Positions 1-33,593 of a stretch of 40,820 nucleotides of DNA are shown here, one piece after another. The translations under genes and the position numbers were made by a program. Every line of letters begins with the position of its first letter. Position 1 is the first letter of the stretch. The notes beneath the pieces are model-generated. The model was not told the DNA's origin. It was given only the letters and a program-made list of their open reading frames with translations, and searched no databases. This DNA comes from a virus (Duplodnaviria; Heunggongvirae; Uroviricota; Caudoviricetes): the IMG/VR virus record IMGVR_UViG_2917413769_000008, positions 1 to 40,820 of that record. One strand, given 5' to 3'.

Positions 1-915
1 CTATGCTGTTTTGATATCTACGATAACCCAGTCTTTACCACGATCATCATTGTATCGGTCGGTCATTTTTCTGGATTTATGGCCTAACAACTTTTGCGTA
101 TCCAGACCCTGTTCCCGATATAACCGTTCTGACAGAGATCGCTGCTCATGAAATGTGGGCGCAGTTCCTTGCTCCCATTTTATGCCACATTTTTCCCTGG
201 CCTTTTTAAAAGCCGTTGTCAGAGTATTTGCAGAAACCTGGTCTCCTCTGTTTGCTTGAGAGGTAGTGTGACGGTAATGGACCAGATATTTACTAACAAC
301 AGCATCCCTGCACTGAGATATAACTTCACGAAGGGTAATATTCAGAGCATCGCATTTCAGGTTAAGCGGAATAGCAAGTTTTGAACCGGTTTTTTCCTGA
401 GTAATGTGCAACATGTCGTCCCAGATATCAGAGAATTTCAAATTGCAGATATCACCTAAACGTTGTCCAGTAACAAGAGCAAGTAGCATGCCGCATTTTA
501 AATAGGGCTGCCGTCTGCTTACGCTTTCAAATATTGCCTGCCATTCGGGCAGTGACAATCTTTGGCGGTTTACTCGATTTCGCGGTTGTTTTGTTGCCTG
601 TGCTGGGTTAAATCCTGGCGGAACATGTCCTGCGTGTTGTGCTTCTTTGAAGACGTCGATCAACACCATTCTCACGACTTGCGCCATCCTGTTATGACCT
701 TCAGCCTTTACAGCATCAATTATTTCGGCAATATCAAGTGCGGTAATATCCTTGAGGTGTTGCATTCCACAATGCTCACGGAAAAGACGAATGGGTTTGC
801 CTTTTTGCCGATAGGAGTTGGGTCTTAGTTCATTATGTTGCAGCCTGTCCTCCTGGATAGAAATATATTTATCAAGCCATTCTGTCACCGTAATGTCTGA
901 GCGCCTGCCTTTCAT
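1..915 (-). CDS. int: Tyrosine integrase (lambda Int family), core-binding and catalytic portion; longest ATG-initiated ORF, stop codon at window positions 1-3
   Basis: 304-aa ORF aligns to lambda Int from about residue 60 to the C-terminus (HELRSLSARLY / LLGHKS motifs conserved as HEQRSLSERLY / LLGHKS). Confidence 0.9.
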   Translation of the reverse strand: MKGRRSDITVTEWLDKYISIQEDRLQHNELRPNSYRQKGKPIRLFREHCGMQHLKDITALDIAEIIDAVKAEGHNRMAQVVRMVLIDVFKEAQHAGHVPPGFNPAQATKQPRNRVNRQRLSLPEWQAIFESVSRRQPYLKCGMLLALVTGQRLGDICNLKFSDIWDDMLHITQEKTGSKLAIPLNLKCDALNITLREVISQCRDAVVSKYLVHYRHTTSQANRGDQVSANTLTTAFKKAREKCGIKWEQGTAPTFHEQRSLSERLYREQGLDTQKLLGHKSRKMTDRYNDDRGKDWVIVDIKTA

Positions 916-1024: not shown

Positions 1025-1144
1025 CTATGAAAAACGACCGGATAGTGGATGTTTGTATTGCCAATATACCTTTCCGGTTCGCTTATCTAATTTGCAATAT
1101 AAATTGGGTATAGAGATTTTGTGAGATCGGGGTCTAGCAGCCAT
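1025..1144 (-). pseudogene. int: Integrase N-terminal arm-binding segment (MAARPRSHKISIPNLYCKLDKRTGKVYWQYKHPLSGRFS*) in a different frame from the 1..915 ORF; frames meet at an A5/T5 run (1030..1034)
   Basis: ATG at 1144 overlaps the xis 3' end as in lambda; RSH / PNLY / RTGK resemble the lambda Int N-terminus. Removing one T from the run joins it in frame to ...HSLGTDENEAKQ... of the downstream ORF. Confidence 0.55.
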
Positions 1145-1370
1145 CAGCGATTATCCGTTGGAGTTTTGGGTTTGCGTTTATTGGGAGTTGCGGTTCTGCA
1201 AGCGTTCCTACAAAACGGGAATTTCGGTCAATCATCCAGTAGCGACCAACTTTTATAGCGGGTGGGGCCATCATTTTCCCTTGCGCGTATTTTTTCAGAA
1301 CTCGCTCACTTGGTGCTAAGTCCCCAAATTCTTCTTTAGCCCAGTCCTGTAAAGTGATTAGTCGAGACAT
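1134..1370 (-). CDS. xis: Excisionase (Xis)
   Basis: 78-aa ORF immediately upstream of and overlapping int; N-terminus resembles lambda Xis (LTLQ-W motif). Confidence 0.8.
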   Translation of the reverse strand: MSRLITLQDWAKEEFGDLAPSERVLKKYAQGKMMAPPAIKVGRYWMIDRNSRFVGTLAEPQLPINANPKLQRIIADGC

Positions 1371-2063: not shown

Positions 2064-2092
2064 GAATAATAAAAAAGGAGCCTGTAGCTCCC
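2064..2092 (-). terminator. Rho-independent terminator inside the early-left operon
   Basis: On the minus strand: GGAGCtacagGCTCC hairpin followed by TTTTTTTATT. Confidence 0.5.
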
Positions 2093-2113
2093 TGATGATT
2101 TTGCTTTTCATGT

Positions 2114-2329
2114 TCACCGTTCCTTAAAGACGCCGTTCAACATGCCGATCGCCAGGCTTAAATGAGTCGGTGTGAATCCCATCAGCGTTACCGTTTCGCG
2201 GTGCTTCTTTAGTACGCTACGGCAAATGTCATCGACGTTTTTATCCGGAAACTGCTGTCTGGCTTTTTTGATTTCAGAATTAGCCTGACGGGCAATGCTG
2301 CGAAGGGCGTTTTCTTGCTGAGGTGTCAT
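2114..2329 (-). CDS. Hypothetical protein (71 aa, MTPQQENALRSIARQ...)
   Basis: Internal ATG of the 2114..2395 ORF; this ATG overlaps the stop of an upstream small peptide ORF (ATGA). Confidence 0.5.
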   Translation of the reverse strand: MTPQQENALRSIARQANSEIKKARQQFPDKNVDDICRSVLKKHRETVTLMGFTPTHLSLAIGMLNGVFKER

Positions 2330-2409
2330 TGAACAAGCCCCATGTCGGCAAGCATAAGCACACAGAATATGAAGCCCGCTGCCAGAAAAATGCATTCAGT
2401 GGTTGTCAT
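2326..2409 (-). CDS. Candidate small hydrophobic peptide (27 aa, MTTTECIFLAAGFIFCVLMLADMGLVQ)
   Basis: ATG-initiated ORF not in the supplied track (<60 aa); single hydrophobic helix; stop overlaps the start of the downstream 71-aa ORF. Confidence 0.3.
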   Translation of the reverse strand: MTTTECIFLAAGFIFCVLMLADMGLVQ

Positions 2410-2568: not shown

Positions 2569-2757
2569 TTAACTCAACAGGAGATGCTTTGTGCATACCG
2601 CCTCCCGTTTATTATTTATCTTCTCAGCCAGCCGCTGTGCTTTCAGTGGATTTCTGATAACAGAAAGGCCGGGAAATACCCAGCCTCGCTTTGTAACGGA
2701 GTAGACGAAAGTGATCGCGCCTACCCGGATATTATCGTGAGGATGCGTCATCGCCAT
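2569..2757 (-). CDS. Small conserved lambda early-left protein (orf60a-like)
   Basis: 62-aa ORF immediately downstream of exo, overlapping its 3' end; matches my recollection of lambda orf60a. Confidence 0.7.
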
Positions 2758-3428
2758 TGCTCCCCAAATACAAAACCAATTTCAGCCAGTGCCTCGTCCA
2801 TTTTTTCGATGAACTCCGGCACCATCTCGTCAAAACTCGCCATGTACTTTTCATTCCGCTCAATCACGACATAATGCAGGCCTTCACGCTTCATGCGCGG
2901 GTCATAGTTGGCAAAGTACCAGGCATCTTTTCGCGTCACCCACATGCTGTACTGCACCTGGGCCATGTAAGCCGATTTTATTGCCTCGAAACCACCGAGC
3001 CGGAATTTCATGAAATCCCGGGAGGTAAACGGGCATTTCAGTTCAAGGCCGTTGCCGTCACTGCATAAACCATCGGGAGAGCAGGCGGTGCGCATACTTT
3101 CGTCGCGATAGATGATCGGGGATTCAGTAACATTCACGCCGGAAGTGAATTCAAACAGGGTTCTGGCGTCGTTCTCGTACTGTTTTCCCCAGGCCAGCGC
3201 CTTAGCATTAACTTCCGGAGCCACACCGGTGCAAACCTCAGCCAGCAGGGTGTGGAAGTAGGACATTTTCATGTCAGGCCACTTCTTTCCTGAGCGGGGC
3301 TTTGCTATCACGTTGTGAACTTCTGAAGCGGTGATGACGCCGAGCCGTAATTTGTGCCATGCATCATCCCCCTGTTCGACAGCTCTCACGTCGATCCCGG
3401 TACGCTGCAGGATAATGTCCGGTATCAT
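2748..3428 (-). CDS. exo: Lambda exonuclease (Red-alpha)
   Basis: 226-aa translation matches lambda Exo over its length. Confidence 0.95.
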
Positions 3429-4210
3429 GCTGCCACCTTCTGCTCAGTGGCTTTCTGTTTCAGGAATCCAAGAGCTTTCACTGCTTCGGCCTGTGTCAGT
3501 TCTGACGATGCGCGAATGTCGCGGCGAAATATCTGGGAACAGAGCGGCAATAAGTCGTCATCCCATGTTTTATCCAGGGCGATCAGCAGAGTGTTAATCT
3601 CCTGCATGGTTTCATCGTTAACCGGAGTGATGTCGCGTTCCGGCTGACGTTCTGCAGTGTATGCGGTATTTTCGACAATGCGCTCGGCTTCATCCTTGTC
3701 ATAGATACCAGCAAATCCGAAGGCGAGACGGGCACACTGAATCATGGCTTTATGCCGTAACATCCGTTTGGGATGCGACTGCCACGGCCCCGTGATTTCT
3801 CTGCCTTCGCGGGTTTTGAATGGTTCGCGGCGGCATTCATCCATCCACTCGGTAACGCAGATCGGATGATTGCGGTCCTTGCGGTAAATCCGGCATGTAC
3901 AGGATTCATTGTCCTGCTCAAAGTCCATGCCATCAAACTGCTGGTTTTCATTGATGATGCGGGACCAGCCATCAACGCCCACCACCGGAACGATGCCGTT
4001 CTGCTTATCAGGGAAGGCGTAAATTTCTTTCGTCCACGGATTAAGGCCGTACTGGTTGGCGACGATCAGCAATGCGATGAACTGCGCATCGCTGGCATCG
4101 CCTTTAAATGCTGTCTGGCGAAGAGTGGTGATCAGTTCCTGTGGGTCGACAGAATCCATGCCGACACGTTCAGCCAGCTTCCCTGCCAGCGTTGCGAGTG
4201 CTGTACTCAT
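3425..4210 (-). CDS. bet: Lambda Bet single-strand annealing protein (Red-beta)
   Basis: 261-aa translation matches lambda Bet; ATGA overlap with exo. Confidence 0.95.
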
Positions 4211-4215
4211 CCGTT

Positions 4216-4512
4216 TTATACCTCTGAATCAATATCAACCTGGTGGTGAGCAATGGTTTCAACCATGTACCGGATGTGTTCTGCCATGCGCTCCTGAAAC
4301 TCAACATCGTCATCAAACGCACGGGTAATGGCTTTTTTGCTGGCCCCGTGGCGTTGCAAATGATCGATGCATAGCGATTCAAACAGGTGCTGTGGAAGAC
4401 CTTTTTCCATGTCGTCTGCCAGTTCTGCCTCTTTCTCTTCACGGGCGATCTGCTGGTAGTGACGCGCCCAGCTCTGAGCCTCAAGACGATCCTGAATGTA
4501 ACAAGCGTTCAT
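4216..4512 (-). CDS. gam: Gam, RecBCD inhibitor (short 98-aa form)
   Basis: Matches the C-terminal 98 aa of lambda Gam; an in-frame stop lies 19 codons upstream, so the long isoform is not encoded. Confidence 0.9.
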
Positions 4513-4587
4513 GGCTGAACTCCTGAAAATGGCTGTGAAAATATCGCCAGCGAAATGCCAGGCTGATTAGAAAAACAGGAAAGGGGA

Positions 4588-4794
4588 TTAGTGATTCAGG
4601 CCGTTGCCGCGTCCGTCAAGAAAAACTTCCACGAGCAAGTCACGGGTATAAGTGCGCTCGATGCCGCGATGCAGATAAAGCCGTCCGCGTAAATTAGCTG
4701 ATGCTGTCCAGGTACCATCTTTGTGTTTGACCAGCATTCCTGGCATGACCGCACCGCGATTAACGGTCTGCGTTCCGTAATGTTGATGAACCAT
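4588..4794 (-). CDS. Hypothetical small protein (68 aa) in the kil/cIII position
   Basis: ATG ORF with E. coli-like codon choice 75 bp upstream of gam; no recognised family. Confidence 0.4.
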   Translation of the reverse strand: MVHQHYGTQTVNRGAVMPGMLVKHKDGTWTASANLRGRLYLHRGIERTYTRDLLVEVFLDGRGNGLNH

Positions 4795-4964
4795 AAAAAC
4801 CCCTGCCCGTAAGCTGGGCTGCTGAACATATAGAGACTTCTGCGCGTATTCAGGCGGTGGATGGCCGCCGGTGTCATAACTAAGCCGCCTCGTTGAAGCG
4901 ACTGAGGTATGAAGTATCGAGTTGATTTCAGCTGGTCACACCGACGTTCACGCGTCCGTTTCAC
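4596..4964 (-). CDS. Candidate N-like antiterminator with an N-terminal arginine-rich motif (GTG start; alternative reading of the same DNA)
   Basis: First ORF downstream of the presumed pL; GGGAG sits 6-7 nt upstream of the GTG; N-terminus (M)KRTRERRCDQLK resembles lambda N MDAQTRRRERRAEK. It overlaps the 68-aa ORF out of frame and its C-terminal composition is atypical. Confidence 0.25.
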   Translation of the reverse strand: MKRTRERRCDQLKSTRYFIPQSLQRGGLVMTPAAIHRLNTRRSLYMFSSPAYGQGFLWFINITERRPLIAVRSCQECWSNTKMVPGQHQLIYADGFICIAASSALIPVTCSWKFFLTDAATA

Positions 4965-5059
4965 CCCTCGCACTCCCCGTAGCCTGCTGAAATTCAAACT
5001 GCGGATCTAAGCGGTCATCGCAACGGTGAAACAGGTGGTTGCCGTATCGTTGTGTTGTT

Positions 5060-5125
5060 GCGATGAATTTATTTAAAACTATAGTTGTTTTGTCGTCAAC
5101 AACAAAAGTTGTTTTGTCGGTTATT
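5060..5125 (-). promoter_or_regulatory. Putative pL promoter with OL operator repeats
   Basis: Minus strand: TTGACG, 17 nt, TTAAAT; GTTGTT / AACAAC inverted half-sites; a ~30-bp block shared with OR (TTGTTGAC..AAAACAAC(C/T)ATAGTTTTAA). Confidence 0.55.
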
Positions 5126-5237
5126 TTAAATATAACTGGTTGTATTTAGGATGGATTTATTTTGTGACTTGCATCGCATAGCGATAACTGAAGCGAGGTT
5201 GTGGTGTTTTTTTTGAACGGTGTGTGATGAGGGTAGG

Positions 5238-5290
5238 GCAAAAGAAAACCCGGGCCGTGAACTGTCCAACTTTCGGGGGGCAGTTCACGG
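5238..5290 (-). terminator. Rho-independent terminator ending the cI-distal operon
   Basis: On the minus strand: CCGTGAACTG...CAGTTCACGG 10-bp stem followed by a T-rich tract (cccgggTTTTCTTTT). Confidence 0.6.
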
Positions 5291-5380
5291 GGGCAGGGTT
5301 TAGATGATTGGTTAAGAAAGGGTAATAGGGAATGAAAAATCGCTTTGCCTAATGCAAGGTGGCGAGCAGTTTCTTAAGCA

Positions 5381-5821
5381 CTAAAGAAAAAAGTACATTG
5401 ATAGCTTATAAAGTCCTGTTCCTGCAGCGATGATTGCTGGAACACCAAGCAATACCGCAAGCTTTGCGTCTGAAATCTTTCTATCGACAGCATCGATGGA
5501 TGGTTTTTTGGCTAGTGACTCTTTTATTGAATCGAGTCGCTCCAGAACAGCGATCATGTTTCTGTCGATAGATTTGACATCTGTCTTGAGCTCATCAACG
5601 TCACGTCGGATGTAGGACACATCAGACTCAAGCTTTGCAACTTTCGATTCAAGCACATTATTACTCCCAGAGCCACCGCTACCACTTGATTGTAGCATAG
5701 GTACATTACCGCCAGACATACCAGCTGATTGAGAAAATGCTGCGGTGTGCAAAGATGATGATCTTGCCGCTTGTTCAAGCTTTTCAGTTAGGTTTGGAGC
5801 TTCGTAATAACCGTGTTTCAT
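5381..5821 (-). CDS. Coiled-coil protein with Gly/Ser-rich N-terminal region and a single C-terminal transmembrane helix (146 aa); rexB-position cargo
   Basis: ATG ORF 8 nt after the upstream gene's stop; C-terminal LAVLLGVPAIIAAGTGLY hydrophobic segment; heptad-like LESKVAKLESDVSYIRRDVDELKTDVKSIDRNMIAVLERLDSIKESL region. Confidence 0.7.
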   Translation of the reverse strand: MKHGYYEAPNLTEKLEQAARSSSLHTAAFSQSAGMSGGNVPMLQSSGSGGSGSNNVLESKVAKLESDVSYIRRDVDELKTDVKSIDRNMIAVLERLDSIKESLAKKPSIDAVDRKISDAKLAVLLGVPAIIAAGTGLYKLSMYFFL

Positions 5822-5829
5822 TGTTAATA

Positions 5830-6099
5830 TTATGACTTATTGGTTTTAGCTCTATCATGCTGATCGCGAATAAAGTCAGCGAGTTTAAGCATTAAATCTT
5901 CCGTCATGCGAATTGTTGCAATGTTGTACTTTACGCTTTCAGTGTCATTACTACCATCAGCGTCCCATTCTGTAACATGCTGAAAGAAAGATATGGAGCC
6001 TAAGCGATCGTCATCTTCCCCAAAAGATGAATATCCAAATGCATCAGCATATGCATCTACACAGTTATTTGATTTTTTAATAAGTTTTTTATCACTCAT
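5830..6099 (-). CDS. Small acidic hypothetical protein (89 aa); rexA-position cargo
   Basis: Internal ATG at 6099 preceded by GGGAAAGG 6 nt upstream; AT-rich, unlike its neighbours; lies directly downstream of cI on the same strand. Confidence 0.65.
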   Translation of the reverse strand: MSDKKLIKKSNNCVDAYADAFGYSSFGEDDDRLGSISFFQHVTEWDADGSNDTESVKYNIATIRMTEDLMLKLADFIRDQHDRAKTNKS

Positions 6100-6179: not shown

Positions 6180-6869
6180 TTATCCGTGTTTCCTGTACGT
6201 CTGCGGCATGCTCCCAATAACCTTACCGAATATGAATACCCGATTCATCTCGTCTTTCTCGATCGGGTCCCACGGTGAGTAGCTCTTGTTATCAGAGATA
6301 ACCAGCAGCTTATCCTTCATCATTTGCAGGCGCTTTACATGGGCTGTGTCGTCGTACAGAAACGCATAGATGCCATCACCGTCGAAAGATTTAACAGTGA
6401 TATCAACGAACAGCAGGTCACCTGGTTCGATCGTCCCTGACATGCTGTCACCGCGCACGTTAATGATGCGGATATTTTCCGCCTTCCTGCCATCGAACAT
6501 GTGACGAGCATCGTCAAACGAGTACTCAACCGAGCGTAGAACTTCCACAAACTCACGGTTGATGACACCCGGTCCGGCACTGACTTCTATATCAAGAACG
6601 TCAATCTTGAAGTATTTTGAATGGCTGACAGTTGATTGTATTGGTTGCACGGTACTGTCTGACATATTTCCAACGCCAGAAGATAACCATTCTGCGCGCA
6701 CACCCAAAGCGTTTGCGATCTCCACGATTTTAGTTGTTTGGTTAGCTTTCCCTGTTTCGATTTTCTGAATGGCAGCCTGGCTAACCCCGACCATATCCCC
6801 AAGCGCCTTTTGTGTAAGGCCTCGCGCTAATCTGGCTTCTTTAAGTCTTTCTGAGAGTGTTGTTTTCAT
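6180..6869 (-). CDS. cI: Prophage repressor (cI-like): N-terminal HTH plus C-terminal LexA/S24-type autopeptidase domain
   Basis: Start taken as MKTTLSERLKEARLARGLTQKALGDMVGVSQAAIQKIE (HTH); C-terminal GDSM...K motifs of S24 peptidases; divergent from cro. Confidence 0.85.
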   Translation of the reverse strand: MKTTLSERLKEARLARGLTQKALGDMVGVSQAAIQKIETGKANQTTKIVEIANALGVRAEWLSSGVGNMSDSTVQPIQSTVSHSKYFKIDVLDIEVSAGPGVINREFVEVLRSVEYSFDDARHMFDGRKAENIRIINVRGDSMSGTIEPGDLLFVDITVKSFDGDGIYAFLYDDTAHVKRLQMMKDKLLVISDNKSYSPWDPIEKDEMNRVFIFGKVIGSMPQTYRKHG

Positions 6870-6973
6870 AGTCCAAATGTACAACCAAGGTTTTATTCCA
6901 TCAAACGAAAATGGTTGTTGACTAAAAACAACCATAGTTTTAATCTTGATTCAAATTAACCACGGAGGTTGTT
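6870..6973. promoter_or_regulatory. OR operator / divergent pRM-pR promoter region
   Basis: Palindrome GGTTGTTgactaaaAACAACC (6913..6933) and a wider ACAACCA...TGGTTGT repeat; pR TTGACT, 17 nt, TAATCT upstream of cro; a cI -10 (TACATT) only ~6 nt from the cI ATG suggests a leaderless cI mRNA. Confidence 0.6.
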
Positions 6974-7204
6974 ATGAACCCAGCTATCAAAACAGCGATC
7001 AATATCGTTGGTTCACAAAAGAAACTGGGCGCTGCTTGCGAAGTTTCACAGCAGGCCGTCTATAAGTGGCTTCACAACAAAGCAAAGGTATCCCCTGAAC
7101 ATGTCGGCAGCATTGTTACGGCTACTGGTGGAGTAGTGAAGGCATACCAGATTCGCCCGGATCTTCCGAAGTTGTTTCCACACACCGAAAAGAACGCAGC
7201 TTAA
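6974..7204 (+). CDS. cro: Cro-like HTH regulator
   Basis: 76-aa ORF divergent from cI, GGAGG RBS, HTH-like segment (GSQKKLGAACEVSQQAVYKW). Confidence 0.8.
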   Translation: MNPAIKTAINIVGSQKKLGAACEVSQQAVYKWLHNKAKVSPEHVGSIVTATGGVVKAYQIRPDLPKLFPHTEKNAA

Positions 7205-7273
7205 ATTTCCATTTAACGCTCTTTAACAATAAGCAATCAACTTAACAGTCAATTCAAACTAAAGGAGTCAATT

Positions 7274-7813
7274 ATGCAACCACTTACATACCAACAGACT
7301 AGCGGATTTAGCCCGACTGCGGTGATAAATCGTTCTCAAACAAAACAGGTGCCAGGCCACGAAAAAATCCGTGATGCCGTCCGCGCTTGGTCGGCTGAAG
7401 ATAATCAGGATGTCGTTGCCACACTCATTGTGAATGAGTATCGGGAGCAGGGCGGCGGCACCATCGATTTCCCTGATGATGTCAGCCGTGCACGCCAGAA
7501 GCTGTTCCGCTTCCTCGATAACAAATTCGATTCTGAAAAATACCGAAATAACGTGCGTGAACTGACCCCGGCAATTCTGGCGGTACTACCGCTGGAATAT
7601 CGCGGTTACCTGGTTGAGCAGGATAGCTTCATGGCTAGGTTGGCTGAAATGGAAAAGGAACTCAGTGAGGCAAAACAGGCTGTCATTCTCAACGCACCAC
7701 GCCACCAGAAACTGAAGGAAATTAGTGAAGGTATTGTGTCGATGTTTCGTGTGGACCCAGATCTGGCTGGTCCATTGATGGCGATGGTTACTACCATGCT
7801 GGGGGCGATATGA
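7274..7813 (+). CDS. YdaT-like protein in the cII position
   Basis: 179-aa ORF between cro and O with AGGAG RBS; family assignment from memory only. Confidence 0.5.
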   Translation: MQPLTYQQTSGFSPTAVINRSQTKQVPGHEKIRDAVRAWSAEDNQDVVATLIVNEYREQGGGTIDFPDDVSRARQKLFRFLDNKFDSEKYRNNVRELTPAILAVLPLEYRGYLVEQDSFMARLAEMEKELSEAKQAVILNAPRHQKLKEISEGIVSMFRVDPDLAGPLMAMVTTMLGAI

Positions 7814-9823: not shown

Positions 9824-9974
9824 GGTTGACGATAACTAATATCTGGCGCTATATTCTGTGTGTTGCCGCAAAATCGGCACACGGGATTGGCGTCCCGGAT
9901 AAGGTAATCGCGACTACTACACGCCGCGAGCGTGTTTTTTATTGTCGTAAGCATACGCACATCTGAATTATGGT

Positions 9975-10040
9975 GGGGCGTGTAGGGCCGACTTCGGTCG
10001 GGCCGGTTGATTACCCCGGTTACGCCAACCCTACATGTCT
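9975..10040 (+). other. GC-rich structured element (nested hairpins, UUCG tetraloop) between ren and the antirepressor-like gene
   Basis: GGGCCGACttcgGTCGGGCC hairpin nested inside GTAGGG...CCCTAC; no convincing ORF. Confidence 0.3.
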
Positions 10041-10098
10041 CACCACCAAACTGATTGGCGTCAGCGGTGGTGGTTAACTTGATTTATAGGTAATCATC

Positions 10099-14475: not shown

Positions 14476-14515
14476 CAACGATGGGCTTTGTATGTCCGGT
14501 GTTGAGAAAAAGTAG

Positions 14516-14547
14516 AAAACCCGCTAATGAGCGGGTTTTTGTGTTTT
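14516..14547 (+). terminator. tR' rho-independent terminator
   Basis: AAACCCGCtaatgaGCGGGTTT hairpin followed by TTGTGTTTT. Confidence 0.8.
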
Positions 14548-14778
14548 AAATGGGGAGGTGGCTGGATGTCTAAAATAAACATTGCTTCCAAGTGTACAAC
14601 TATGCGTTAATGGCTGCGTCGGTTTGAAGAACAGACGATATACGAAGTAGTTTACTAAAGCAGTTCTCATTTCAGGTGTTATTCACTTATTCCTTCTTTG
14701 AGTCTCTCCAATTAAGTACGAAGTCGTTTCTGTTATACAAATCATTTATGCCGAAAGGCTCAAGTTAAGGAATGTAGA

Positions 14779-14994
14779 ATGTCAAATAAAATGACTGGTT
14801 TAGTAAAATGGTTTAACGCTGATAAAGGTTTTGGCTTTATTTCTCCTGTTGATGGTAGTAAAGATGTGTTTGTGCATTTTTCTGCAATTCAGAATGATAA
14901 TTATCGAACCTTATTTGAAGGCCAAAAGGTTACCTTCTCTGTAGAGAGTGGTGCTAAAGGTCCTGCAGCAGCAAATGTCATTATTACTGATTAA
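14779..14994 (+). CDS. cspB: Cold-shock protein (CspA family), inserted between Q and the lysis genes
   Basis: 71 aa with [12 protein letters not shown] (RNP1) and VFVHFSAI (RNP2) motifs; long 5' leader; CspB rather than CspI is from memory. Confidence 0.8.
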
Positions 14995-15192
14995 AATTCA
15001 TAGCTTGTCTGTATACGATAACGAAGAAGGCTGATGCCTGAGTAGAGATGCAGATAGAGTTGTGGGTATTGAATCCCATTTTGTGGTGAAGTGCAGGTTT
15101 GCTGCATGAATAGTTTTACAGTAGAAGCTAACTGCTGGCATAGCAATACAAAGTGCGTAAGTGGGTAACTACCACAAAAAGCACCACAATCT

Positions 15193-15220
15193 CAAACCCG
15201 CGCAGGCGGGTTTTTTATTA
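15193..15220 (+). terminator. Rho-independent terminator downstream of cspB
   Basis: AAACCCGCgcagGCGGGTTT followed by TTTTATT. Confidence 0.7.
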
Positions 15221-28722: not shown

Positions 28723-31276
28723 ACCGGTAGGCGATCTGGTCGTTGATTTAAGTCTGGATGCGGCCAGATTTGACGAGCAGATGGCCAGAGTCAGGCGTCA
28801 TTTTTCCGGTACGGAAACTGATGCGAAAAAAACAGCGGCAGTCGTTGAACAGTCAATGAACCGGCAGGCGCTGGCTGCACAGAAAGCGGGGATTTCCGTC
28901 GGGCAGTATAAAGCCGCCATGCGTATGCTGCCTGCACAGTTCACCGACGTGGCCACGCAGCTTGCAGGCGGGCAAAGTCCGTGGCTGATCCTGTTGCAAC
29001 AGGGGGGTCAGGTGAAGGACTCCTTCGGCGGGATGATCCCCATGTTCAGGGGGCTTGCCGGTGCGATCACCCTGCCGATGGTCGGGGCCACCTCGCTGGC
29101 GGTGGCTACAGGGGCGCTGGCGTATGCCTGGTATCAGGGCAACTCAACCCTGTCCGATTTCAACAAAACGCTGGTCCTTTCCGGTAATCAGTCGGGTCTG
29201 ACGGCAGATCGTATGCTGGTCCTGTCCAGAGCCGGGCAGGCGGCAGGGCTGACGTTTAACCAGACCAGCGAGTCACTCAGCGCACTGGTTAAGGCGGGGG
29301 TAAGCGGTGAGGCTCAGATTGCGTCCATCAGCCAGAGTGTGGCGCGTTTCTCCTCTGCATCCGGTGTGGAGGTGGACAAGGTCGCTGAAGCCTTCGGGAA
29401 GCTGACCACAGACCCGACGTCGGGGCTGACGGCGATGGCACGCCAGTTCCATAACGTGACGGCGGAGCAGATTGCGTATGTTGCTCAGTTGCAGCGTTCC
29501 GGCGATGAAGCCGGGGCATTGCAGGCGGCGAACGAGGCCGCAACGAAAGGGTTTGATGACCAGACCCGCCGCCTGAAAGAGAACATGGGCACGCTGGAGA
29601 CCTGGGCAGACAGGACTGCACGGGCATTCAAATCCATGTGGGATGCGGTGCTGGATATTGGTCGTCCTGATACCGCGCAGGAGATGCTGATTAAGGCAGA
29701 GGCTGCGTTTAAGAAAGCAGACGACATCTGGAATCTGCGCAAGGATGATTATTTTGTTAACGATGAAGCGCGGGCGCGTTACTGGGATGATCGTGAAAAG
29801 GCCCGTCTTGCGCTTGAAGCCGCCCGAAAGAAGGCTGAGCAGCAGACTCAACAGGACAAAAATGCGCAGCAGCAGAGCGATACCGAAGCGTCACGGCTGA
29901 AATATACCGAAGAGGCGCAGAAGGCTTACGAACGGCTGCAGACGCCGCTGGAGAAATATACCGCCCGTCAGGAAGAACTGAATAAGGCCCTGAAAGACGG
30001 AAAAATCCTGCAGGCAGATTACAACACGCTGATGGCGGCGGCGAAAAAGGACTATGAAGCGACACTGAAAAAGCCGAAGCAGTCCGGCGTGAAGGTGTCT
30101 GCAGGAGAGCGTCAGGAAGACAGTGCTCATGCCGCCCTGCTGACGCTTCAGGCAGAACTCCGGACGCTGGAGAAGCATGCCGGAGCGAATGAGAAAATCA
30201 GCCAGCAGCGCCGGGATTTGTGGAAGGCAGAAAGTCAGTTCGCGGTACTGGAGGAGGCGGCACAACGTCGCCAGCTGTCCGCACAGGAGAAATCCCTGCT
30301 GGCGCATAAAGACGAGACGCTGGAGTACAAACGCCAGCTGGCTGCACTTGGCGATAAGGTTACGTATCAGGAGCACCTGAATGCGCTGGCGCAGCAGGCG
30401 GATAAGTTCGCACAGCAACAACGGGCAAAACGGGCAGCCATTGATGCGAAAAACCGGGGGCTGACTGACCGGCAGGCAGCGCGGGAAGCCACGGAACAGC
30501 GTCTGAAGGAACAGTATGGCGATAATCCGCTGGCGCTGAATAACGTCATGTCAGAGCAGAAAAAGACCTGGGCAGCTGAAGACCAGCTTCGCGGGAGCTG
30601 GATGGCAGGCCTCAAGTCAGGCTGGAGTGAGTGGGAAGAGAGCGCCACGGACAGTATGTCGCAGGTTAAAAGTGCAGCCACGCAGACCTTTGATGGTATT
30701 GCACAGAATATGGCGGCGATGCTGACCGGCAGTGAACAGAACTGGCGCAGCTTCACCCGATCCGTGCTGTCCATGATGACAGAAATTTTGCTTAAGCAGG
30801 CAATGGTGGGGATTGTCGGGAGTATCAGCAGCGCCATTGGCGGTGCTGCCAGTGGTGGCGCATCAGCGTCAGGTGGTACAGCCATTCAGGCAGCTGCGGC
30901 GAAATTCCATTTTGCGACCGGAGGATTTACGGGAACCGGCGGCAAATATGAGCCAGCGGGGATTGTTCACCGTGGTGAATTTGTCTTCACGAAGGAGGCA
31001 ACCAGCCGGATTGGCGTGGGGAATCTCTACCGGCTGATGCGCGGCTATGCCACCGGCGGTTATGTCGGTACACCGGGCAGCATGGCGGACAGTCGGTCGC
31101 AGGCGTCCGGGAAGTTTGAGCAGAATAACCATGTGGTGATTAACAACGATGGCACGAACGGTCAGATAGGGCCACAGGCGCTGAAGGCGGTTTATGACGT
31201 AGCCCGTAAGGCGGCAATGGATGTTGTGACCGGGCAGATGCGTGATGGTGGTCTGTTCTCCGGAGGTGGACGATGA
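28715..31276 (+). CDS. H: Tape measure protein H
   Basis: 853 aa, matches lambda gpH. Confidence 0.95.
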   Translation: MAEPVGDLVVDLSLDAARFDEQMARVRRHFSGTETDAKKTAAVVEQSMNRQALAAQKAGISVGQYKAAMRMLPAQFTDVATQLAGGQSPWLILLQQGGQVKDSFGGMIPMFRGLAGAITLPMVGATSLAVATGALAYAWYQGNSTLSDFNKTLVLSGNQSGLTADRMLVLSRAGQAAGLTFNQTSESLSALVKAGVSGEAQIASISQSVARFSSASGVEVDKVAEAFGKLTTDPTSGLTAMARQFHNVTAEQIAYVAQLQRSGDEAGALQAANEAATKGFDDQTRRLKENMGTLETWADRTARAFKSMWDAVLDIGRPDTAQEMLIKAEAAFKKADDIWNLRKDDYFVNDEARARYWDDREKARLALEAARKKAEQQTQQDKNAQQQSDTEASRLKYTEEAQKAYERLQTPLEKYTARQEELNKALKDGKILQADYNTLMAAAKKDYEATLKKPKQSGVKVSAGERQEDSAHAALLTLQAELRTLEKHAGANEKISQQRRDLWKAESQFAVLEEAAQRRQLSAQEKSLLAHKDETLEYKRQLAALGDKVTYQEHLNALAQQADKFAQQQRAKRAAIDAKNRGLTDRQAAREATEQRLKEQYGDNPLALNNVMSEQKKTWAAEDQLRGSWMAGLKSGWSEWEESATDSMSQVKSAATQTFDGIAQNMAAMLTGSEQNWRSFTRSVLSMMTEILLKQAMVGIVGSISSAIGGAASGGASASGGTAIQAAAAKFHFATGGFTGTGGKYEPAGIVHRGEFVFTKEATSRIGVGNLYRLMRGYATGGYVGTPGSMADSRSQASGKFEQNNHVVINNDGTNGQIGPQALKAVYDVARKAAMDVVTGQMRDGGLFSGGGR

Positions 31277-31602
31277 AAACCTTCCGCTGGAAAGTGAAAC
31301 CGGGTATGGATGTGGCTTCGACTCCTTCCGTCAGGGAGGTGCGCTTTGGTGATGGTTACTCCCAGCGCGCGCCTGCCGGGCTGAATGCCAACCTGAAAAC
31401 GTACAGCGTGACGATTTCTGTCCCCCGTTGGGAGGCCACGGCGCTGGAATCGTTTCTGGCAGAGCACGGAGGCTGGAAAGCCTTTCTGTGGACGCCGCCT
31501 TATGACTGGCGGCAGATAAAGGTGATCTGCGCAAAATGGACGTCGCGGGTCAGTATGCTGCGTGTTGAGTTCAGCGCAGAGTTTAAACAGGTGGTGAACT
31601 GA
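31273..31602 (+). CDS. M: Minor tail protein M
   Basis: 109 aa, matches lambda gpM. Confidence 0.95.
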   Translation: MKTFRWKVKPGMDVASTPSVREVRFGDGYSQRAPAGLNANLKTYSVTISVPRWEATALESFLAEHGGWKAFLWTPPYDWRQIKVICAKWTSRVSMLRVEFSAEFKQVVN

Positions 31603-33048: not shown

Positions 33049-33593
33049 AAACGGGGGCCGAAGCCATCCGGGCGCTGGCCACGCAGCTTCCGTCGTTTCG
33101 CCAGAAACTGAATGAGGGCTGGTATCAGGTGCGCATTGCCGGGCGTGATGCAGGCGAAAATGAATTATCTGCCCGTCTTAATGAGCCGCTGGCAAATGGT
33201 GCCGTGATCCATATCGTGCCGCGTCTGGCGGGAGCTAAAAGTGGCGGTGTGTTTCAGGCGGTGCTGGGTGCGGCGCTGATTGCGGTGGCATGGTGGAACC
33301 CTGTGGGCTGGCTGGGGGCCGCGGCTGTATCGGGTATGTATGCAGCAGGGGCCAGTATGATCCTGGGTGGTGTGGCCCAGATGCTGGCACCGAAAGCCCG
33401 GACGCCCACAGCGACCAGCACGGATAACGGTAAACAGAACACCTATTTCTCCTCACTGGATAACATGGTTGCCCAGGGCAATGTTCTGCCCGTTCTGTAC
33501 GGTGAAATGCGCGTGGGGTCACGTGTGGTTTCTCAGGAGATCAGCACGGCAGACGAAGGGGATGGTGGTCAGGTTGTGGTGATTGGTCGCTGA
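32946..33593 (+). CDS. I: Tail tip assembly protein I
   Basis: 215 aa, matches the N- and C-terminal parts of lambda gpI with a divergent middle. Confidence 0.9.
   Translation: MAATHTLPLASPGMARICLYGDLQRFGRRIDLRVKTGAEAIRALATQLPSFRQKLNEGWYQVRIAGRDAGENELSARLNEPLANGAVIHIVPRLAGAKSGGVFQAVLGAALIAVAWWNPVGWLGAAAVSGMYAAGASMILGGVAQMLAPKARTPTATSTDNGKQNTYFSSLDNMVAQGNVLPVLYGEMRVGSRVVSQEISTADEGDGGQVVVIGR

Follow-up and report, generated by a model that had tools for sequence, protein, structure and literature searches.

The head of the early left operon in a lambdoid phage without a recognizable N gene: kil and a conserved leader RNA

Genes and features between pL and gam

The stretch of DNA analyzed here, called the window throughout, is the 40,820-nucleotide (nt) IMG/VR virus record IMGVR_UViG_2917413769_000008 (Caudoviricetes), and the locus in question is its early left operon, in particular the ~550 base pairs (bp) between the leftward promoter pL and gam. 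This interval holds a leader of ~270 nt at the head of the pL transcript that does not code for protein and contains a conserved 59-nt RNA module, followed by kil, a gene for a cell division inhibitor; N, nutL and put RNA are all missing from it. A first-pass annotation, made from the sequence alone, had placed pL and its operators, remarked on the lack of N, and singled out an open reading frame (ORF) with an arginine-rich motif (ARM) as a candidate for a compact N analogue.

Downstream of the interval, on the minus strand, are a lambda-type gam (4216..4512), bet (3425..4210), exo (2748..3428), xis (1134..1370) and int (1..915). Within it, two ORFs overlap on the same strand (4588..4997). Beyond its upstream end, an AT-rich block with repeated operators (~5071..5119) is followed by two ORFs of unknown function (5381..6099), a cI-like repressor gene (6180..6935) and, on the plus strand, cro (6974..7204). 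The promoter pL can be read from the minus strand at 5071..5099, with a −35 hexamer TTGACG (5099..5094), a 17-nt spacer and a −10 hexamer TTAAAT (5076..5071), and it overlaps the OL operator repeats at 5073..5119. A 19-nt operator-like sequence is common to pL (5073-5091) and the cI-cro intergenic region (6925-6943), with 95% complementarity; the latter region also contains pR (6918..6946, TTGACT-N17-TAATCT). Because the 19-mer recurs at pR, the original assignment of pL and OL is correct, and the distance of ~550 bp to gam stands with it. The pL transcript would start near 5064, and it is at ~5063 that relatives whose immunity region differs become homologous to the window.

kil is the first gene after pL

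The shorter of the two overlapping ORFs, a 68-amino-acid (aa) frame with an ATG start (4588..4794, minus strand), had been noticed previously and left unidentified. It is kil, and its product is of the KilR type found in Rac, not a lambda-type Kil. The protein matches PHROG 294 ("Kil protein for bacterial septation inhibition") over its full length (E = 1.3e-37; residues 1-68 on profile positions 13-80 of 83) and the Rac-KilR family NCBIfam NF008465 with E = 1.8e-17 and 63 bits, under the curated cut-off of 92 bits; in an alignment, Rac KilR and the window Kil are 34% identical. Judging from family membership, the window Kil would inhibit cell division through FtsZ. The same 207-bp ORF is annotated by PGAP/RefSeq in E. 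coli prophages as "phage encoded cell division inhibitor protein" and is the sole ORF annotated in the region.

Conservation was assessed in 95 loci with the leader type of the window, which yielded 66 distinct sequences. In the kil frame, polymorphic sites fall on codon positions 1, 2 and 3 in the proportion 7/10/32, and those with the minor allele in at least two sequences in the proportion 1/2/17. This bias toward third positions supports the earlier impression that the 68-aa frame is the better coding frame, and kil is the first real gene after pL.

The kil Shine-Dalgarno sequence lies at 4800..4804 (minus strand). In the window it carries an A-to-G change at 4801 that turns AGGAG into GGGG, one of several private or rare changes of this leader (4801, 4549, 4916-4918 and 4871/4872). 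Lower Kil expression is one possible explanation of these changes, and a divergent host lineage another.

The second ORF runs on the minus strand from a TTG (4596..4997, 133 aa) or a GTG (4596..4964, 122 aa), bears KRTRERRCDQLK and is out of frame with kil; the ORF, its motif and the overlap are all present as first described. Its segment KRTRERR resembles the arginine-rich motif of lambda N, and GGGGAG precedes the GTG. No match to the ORF was found in Pfam (N_peptide included), PHROGs or NCBIfam, and RefSeq annotates no coding sequence for it.

Comparison with relatives, which are 96-97% identical to the window across the region, bears directly on this frame. The window lacks one A, between 4872 and 4871 (after ATGAC), that is present in all 65 other distinct sequences, and the ARM ORF owes its length of 122 codons to this private 1-nt deletion (1 of 66). 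In 17 of the 66 distinct sequences, a C-to-T change at 4904 introduces a TAG into the frame; a 5-nt insertion shifts it in 4, and the GTG at 4964 is an ATG in 5 and a GGG, with loss of the start, in 1. Measured from the GTG, the ORF in relatives is 125 aa long, in frame with an upstream open reading frame (uORF) and kil, or else 67, 29 or 20 aa; the 20-aa ending occurs in 13 of 47 loci and the 125-aa read-through into uORF-kil in about 30 of 47. Polymorphisms in the ARM-coding part (4964..4875) are spread over the codon positions 8/5/5, or 4/3/4 when the minor allele is present in at least two sequences, and thus show no periodicity. The comparison of the two overlapping frames, named beforehand as the test able to refute an ARM-based N analogue, finds only the 68-aa frame conserved. 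The ARM ORF is therefore judged to be a chance, non-conserved reading frame of the leader and not a gene.

Some phage records carry ORF calls across this region: in the PhiR26_1 record, the ARM GTG serves as the start of a 125-aa "Kil" (3167..3544), and other records have a "membrane carboxypeptidase" or "hypothetical protein" over the leader. For annotation, kil is the 68-aa ORF, and the 125-aa "Kil" and ARM ORF calls are probably over-extended or spurious. A vague likeness of the ARM peptide (VRGVKRT) to a small ORF of HK225-type leaders (MRGAKRK) could not be substantiated and was dropped.

A structured RNA module is conserved upstream of kil

BLAST comparisons with distant phages revealed ~60-100 nt just upstream of kil that are common to HK225 and to Enterobacter and Klebsiella phages, with flanks that are otherwise unrelated. 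The conserved segment corresponds to a 59-nt RNA module on the minus strand (4853..4911), which scores 81.9 bits against covariance model R1 and is present in the window as a single copy, with no second one in, for example, the pR operon. Its first element is an irregular 15-bp hairpin, P1-P2 (4875..4911), which consists of the closing helix P1 (CAUA/UAUG) and a 9-bp stem, P2, with a 3-nt loop. The ATG of the uORF (4877..4875) forms part of the 3' side of P1 and is thereby sequestered. Six bases of linker join P1-P2 to a second hairpin, P3 (4853..4869, GGCGG-CCAUCCA-CCGCC), which in relatives spans the uORF codons Gly-Gly-His-Pro-Pro-Pro; in the window, the uORF frame is shifted by the 1-nt deletion, just upstream of P3.

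Covariation was computed on 35 distinct module sequences. Standard pairs occupy 98.2% of the cells, compared with 32-52% when the 3' partner columns are slid, and the covariation score was reached by none of 500 shuffles. In the first helix, 6 of 12 pairs show compensatory changes on both sides, and a further stem variant, GGCAGA/UCUGCC, is accompanied by a compensatory change of P1 to CAUACA/UUUAUG. Frequent G-U pairs fit only the sense (kil) strand. The module folds as predicted with a z-score of −4.07, and it is less polymorphic than kil. The leader as a whole has no excess stability (z-score of 0.00); structure prediction, which the first-pass annotation had recommended for the pL leader, singles out the 59-nt module alone. 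Covariation thus strongly supports the module as a real, conserved, cis-acting RNA.

The exact 29-nt core of the module, GTTATGACAAYCGGCGGCCATCCACCGCC, occurs in at least 120 IMG/VR contigs, among which the 5' part of the module varies in a compensatory manner. Synonymous variants of P3 in IMG/VR are few: three contigs at the wobble position of Gly1, all C to U with a G-U pair kept, one at that of Pro2, none at that of His, and 11 at the last loop base, the wobble position of Pro1. Set against at least 120 canonical copies, this scarcity argues for a constraint at the RNA level.

The two flanks of the module differ in character. The 3' part of the leader (4795..4852, minus strand) comprises the linear motif GCGCAGAAGUCU (4834..4845), a GC hairpin, P4 (4805..4819), and the kil Shine-Dalgarno sequence and, with a polymorphism density of 0.034 per site, is the least variable part of the region. 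The linear motif, GCGCAGAAGUCU(U), is kept in all three frames relative to the uORF. The stem sequence of P4 varies between leader types with its pairing kept, and P4 abuts the Shine-Dalgarno sequence of the next gene. The pL-proximal part (4912..5066, minus strand; ~150 nt) is found only in the phage group of the window, contains the starts of the ARM ORF and has the highest polymorphism in the leader (0.24-0.30 per site). An inverted repeat forms a 10-bp stem at its 5' end (5057..5066 with 5015..5024), yet this part as a whole is not unusually structured (z = +0.29), and its similarity scores with the HK225 and lambda pL leaders lie inside the shuffle distribution.

The first bases of the pL transcript, GCAACAACACAACGA (~5044..5060), resemble the CA-rich consensus CACAACA of GcvB R1-seed targets, possibly by chance. 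The phage small RNA (sRNA) AgvB mimics this consensus (PMC4104026). An AgvB-like anti-sRNA at the 5' end of the pL transcript was considered and rejected, given that AgvB genes sit downstream of pR', not pL.

The module marks the head of the delayed-early left genes

The leader type of the window is widespread. It is present in 2,212 of 5,426 complete E. coli genomes, none of them more than 96.9% identical to the window (over 4780..5130), and 15 phage records, including plaque-forming isolates, cover at least 80% of the leader query. The N-less layout of pL, non-coding leader, kil and Red genes is therefore no rarity.

The module itself extends to other contexts. More than 12 different first genes come after it, and kil is often not the next gene; whatever that gene is, the delayed-early left genes begin with the module. 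Outside the family of the window, most loci have an intrinsic terminator that ends 0-9 nt before CAUACC, and many of them have a nutL-like arrangement, the boxA-like GCTTTTTAACAA and a hairpin with an A-rich loop, 530-1300 nt further upstream. At least one module-bearing locus (L034) encodes a bona fide N (Pfam N_peptide). The nutL-like sites and the true N upstream of the module show that it coexists with N systems. In the family of the window, nutL, N and the terminator are missing, and pL is joined to the module by ~150 nt of unique sequence.

In the HK225-type pL leader, the boxA-like GCTTTTTAACAA is conserved and is followed ~50 nt later by the A-rich-loop hairpin (CACG-AAAA-CGUG and covarying variants). 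This nutL-like leader is located at 2300..2400 of the HK225 locus and in many IMG/VR loci, and the HK225 protein at the N position, gp40 (PHROG 5305), has no annotated function.

Kil homologs were a less productive route: a viral scan returned only loci with a 100% identical Kil, and a genome scan gave nine loci, none with the module. The module is absent from Rfam and from genome annotations, and a literature search on the core sequences and the uORF peptide found no papers.

The first hairpin appears homologous to a hairpin upstream of lambda and HK022 cIII

When model R1 was run with filters off, it matched lambda at 33482-33521 (12 bits, E = 0.15) and the HK022 counterpart (14.9 bits, E = 0.022). 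At both sites a terminator hairpin comes immediately before the match and cIII immediately after it, and a four-sequence alignment has CAUA(C/A)C, CGCUUCA, CGAGGCG and GUUAUG in all members. On the strength of synteny and alignment together, P1-P2 of the window appears homologous to the hairpin that immediately precedes cIII in lambda and HK022. The cIII-type version of the hairpin occurs in at least 120 viral contigs.

The lambda and window hairpins share their place in the pL operon, before the cIII/kil/gam block, as well as the closing helix CAUACC...GUUAUG with its embedded AUG. The lambda apical sequence, CGCUUCAC(U)CGAGGCG, is that of HK225-type members, whereas the window has an A for the last C. 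Several differences set the sites apart. An intrinsic terminator precedes the lambda and HK022 site but not that of the window's family. A U tract (UUUUUCGUUAUG) comes after the lambda stem, which is predicted to be terminator-like; UAGUUAUG comes after the window stem, which is not predicted to be so. Finally, lambda and HK022 have a mini-uORF of 3 to 9 codons and then cIII, whereas the family of the window has P3, a longer uORF and the linear motif. In lambda, the mini-uORF AUG UAU AAA UAA ends in the cIII Shine-Dalgarno sequence, and its HK022 counterpart has a stop codon that overlaps the AUG of cIII. No lambda- or HK022-type cIII was found in the window or in any collected locus with the P3/uORF form of the module.

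We take the lambda terminators tL2a, tL2b, tL2c and tL3 to lie at ~33930, 33494, 33141 and 31262, sites that coincide with predicted lambda hairpins; the P1-P2 homolog would then sit at tL2b. The lambda GenBank records have no terminator features.

N, nutL and put are missing from the interval

The absence of N after pL, as the first-pass annotation had it, is upheld by Pfam, PHROGs and NCBIfam, and by tblastn of lambda, P22 and phage 21 N sequences and HK022 Nun (read from the HK022 locus) against the whole window, where nothing scored better than E = 1.4. As a control, Pfam PF25694 (N_peptide) detected the N of locus L034 with E = 5.5e-12. On the minus strand of the pL operon there is no boxA within two mismatches, and hence no nutL.

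An HK022 put-like RNA, the other mechanism put forward at the outset, finds no support from homology. A covariance model built from eight put sequences matched neither of the early leaders and scored at best 9.7 bits (E = 0.32, at 21 kb) anywhere in the window, and BLAST with putL recovered HK75, O276, phiEt88, HK639 and others but not the family of the window. Rfam models returned nothing relevant on the leader strand, either at gathering thresholds or, over 4400..5400, at E values up to 10. The pL-gam interval is thus confirmed to lack N, nutL and put RNA.

Terminators and the rightward boxA

Between pL and exo, only two weak terminator-like hairpins were predicted, one inside kil and the other between kil and gam (4547..4561, minus strand). 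The latter is the homolog of the lambda hairpin at 33145-33162, presumably tL2c; it is weakened in the window by a T-T mismatch and has polymorphisms at 4560 and 4549. Beyond exo, the minus strand has a hairpin at 2665..2687 that is identical to lambda 31265-31287, presumably tL3, and a strong intrinsic-terminator-like hairpin between exo and xis/int (2075..2093) that is identical to lambda 30673-30691, within 431 bp that are 97.7% identical to lambda. Antitermination was thus a legitimate question to raise on the strength of the downstream terminators.

The search for nut sites after both promoters, which had also been advised, gave an uneven result, with neither boxA nor boxB on the pL side and a boxA without boxB after cro. 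This boxA (7217..7229, plus strand) matches the consensus CGCUCUUUAACAA (CGCTCTTTAACAA) and starts 13 nt after the cro stop, at the position of nutR; the exact GCTCTTTAACAA (7218..7229) is unique in the window and missing from the pL operon, and no boxB-like hairpin lies beside it. The strongest terminators predicted on the plus strand after cro are those of IsrK (9919..9935), tR' (14515..14540) and one after a cspA-like gene (15194..15213).

In at least 24 of the collected loci, the exact boxA 12-mer occurs on the strand opposite the module (the pR side), at a distance of 1.5-4.2 kb.

Neighboring genes and RNAs

The two ORFs between cI and pL (5381..5821 and 5830..6099, minus strand) occupy the position of lambda rexA/rexB and match only PHROGs of unknown function, 3556 and 4231, respectively; the product of the first has a coiled coil and a hydrophobic C terminus. 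The cII position is taken not by a lambda-type cII but by a gene (7274..7813, plus strand) whose 179-aa product carries a YdaT-toxin domain (Pfam PF06254, E = 9.5e-30); this fits the missing cIII.

Past the replication genes, Rfam identified two plus-strand RNAs, IsrK (61 bits, 9864..9940) and C4 antisense RNA (74 bits, 9966..10050). A promoter-like site (9826..9855) and a terminator belong to IsrK itself, and both stand in the path of pR transcription. A full-length cspA 5' untranslated region (UTR) thermoregulator (156 bits, 14618..15010, plus strand) accompanies a cspA-like ORF (14779..14994); the pair is bracketed by the terminator-like hairpins 14515..14540 and 15194..15213 and resembles a moron placed after the late promoter. 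Transcription antitermination has been reported for proteins of the CspA family.

A proposed leader or attenuator at the head of an operon without N

We favor, with moderate confidence, the view that the pL-gam interval of 550 bp forms the head of an early left operon that works independently of N and begins with a leader or attenuator module. With only two weak hairpins ahead of exo, Kil, Gam, Bet and Exo can be made without antitermination. Barring another mechanism, transcription from pL is probably curbed at the terminators 2665..2687 and 2075..2093 before it enters xis and int. The module would set the entry of transcription and translation into the toxic delayed-early genes. Candidate routes are translation of the uORF across the hairpins, access of Rho to the 270-nt untranslated, C-rich leader, residual pausing or termination, and processing by RNase III; the U tract that follows the same hairpin in lambda is lost in the window. 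On the rightward side, host Nus factors may be brought in by the boxA after cro to counter Rho, with no phage protein needed; a precedent is documented in rrn operons and CRISPR arrays, where the Nus complex acts through boxA against Rho with no phage factor involved (PMC7665894).

Several points weigh against this view. The function of the module is wholly inferred, and the uORF frame is broken in the window, which means either that the peptide is dispensable or that this copy is impaired. The R1 matches in lambda and HK022 are weak by score and convincing only together with synteny and alignment, while the placement of tL2a-c and tL3 on the lambda map, which agrees with the predicted hairpins, is provisional. 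The invariance of P3 is partly an artefact of the exact 29-mer search, which the synonymous-site scans mitigate only in part. Finally, that a phage without N has terminators identical to those of lambda beyond exo argues for a possible read-through mechanism. To our knowledge, how phages of this layout handle the terminators that they share with lambda has not been described.

One alternative, which we regard as unlikely, is that P1-P2 is mainly an RNA-processing or stability element, an RNase III site whose cleavage would part immediate-early from delayed-early mRNA or tune translation of the next gene. P1-P2 is an irregular duplex of ~15 bp, conserved with covariation, that stands at the boundary of two operon segments in every phage examined, and its lambda homolog lies just upstream of cIII. 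On the lambda pL transcript, RNase III sites have been reported in the leader of N and in the region of cIII, and cIII translation reportedly depends on RNase III (Altuvia, Oppenheim and colleagues). The duplex, however, is short for a canonical RNase III substrate, and processing would leave the embedded AUG, P3 and the downstream motif unexplained.

It is rather improbable that the P1-P2-P3 RNA, or the 150-nt proximal leader, is a cis-acting processive antiterminator unrelated to put, which would bind the polymerase that made it and carry it through 2665..2687 and 2075..2093. Speaking for this are the viability and commonness of a family without N, its retention of lambda-identical terminators downstream, and a resemblance to put, described as ~70 nt with two stem-loops (PMC9378689), in the size and layout of the module, an RNA of ~60 nt near pL that has two stem-loops and in which loops and linker are conserved. 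HK639, moreover, is annotated with a putL-like RNA and is not known to have a putR. Against it, the put covariance model does not match the module, the module has no copy in the pR operon, and most phages have a terminator and nutL/N ahead of it; the 150-nt proximal leader, for its part, has no structural signal and is the least conserved part. In addition, the first hairpin also occurs upstream of cIII in lambda (N-type) and HK022 (put-type), so that its presence does not track the antitermination system. Because the same hairpin is found in N-type, put-type and N-less phages, the module is probably a leader or attenuator and not the missing antiterminator.

More doubtful still is the idea that P1-P2-P3 represents a cis-acting RNA of a new class, one that would render RNA polymerase, or a ribosome coupled to it, resistant to termination; if it were true, an N-less family present in ~40% of complete E. 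coli genomes would pass lambda-type terminators without a phage protein.

Hardly credible is the ARM ORF as a compact N analogue, alone or, in about two thirds of relatives, fused in frame to uORF-Kil, whose peptide would bind a leader hairpin as the equivalent of boxB: its N-like motif, its ribosome-binding sequence, the ATG start of some relatives and the read-through form that one submitter called Kil are outweighed by conservation data that already largely refute it, by the lack of a boxA on the pL strand, and by the occurrence of leader hairpins in many phages without the ARM peptide.

Comparison with known systems

With put of HK022 and the putL-like RNA of HK639, the leader of the window shares a non-coding two-stem-loop RNA of ~60-70 nt downstream of pL in a lambdoid phage without N. 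The two are nonetheless dissimilar in sequence and structure, and the module is single copy. It lies ~150 nt from the transcript start and, in most phages, after a terminator and N, unlike put. HK022 carries both put and the P1-P2 hairpin. With the lambda N/nut system, the window shares the N position directly downstream of pL and a perfect boxA after cro; unlike lambda, it has no N protein, no boxA/boxB on the pL side and no boxB beside the boxA on the pR side.

The kilR locus of Rac offers another parallel, being an N-less lambdoid element with a KilR-family toxin gene early in the leftward operon and a non-coding RNA region before it. Control of kilR by Rho/NusG, in the form of silencing, is documented (PMC5793797). 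In E. coli K-12 Rac, the sRNA KilS is annotated immediately upstream of kilR (locus L127, 4406..4503). KilS was discarded as a relative of the window leader, since the sequence upstream of kilR in Rac, KilS included, is unrelated.

In Salmonella, proline-rich leader uORFs of the mgtL/mgtP type gate downstream transcription. By analogy, the family of the window has a short uORF with consecutive proline codons that would lie inside alternative hairpins before regulated genes; the likeness is one of analogy only, and the uORF frame is disrupted in the window.

The module offers an experimental handle on the gating of toxic early genes such as kil. What is new relative to these systems is a very common N-less early left layout, together with a leader RNA, backed by covariation, in which the hairpin found upstream of lambda cIII is extended; the core hairpin of the module is thus present in lambda itself.

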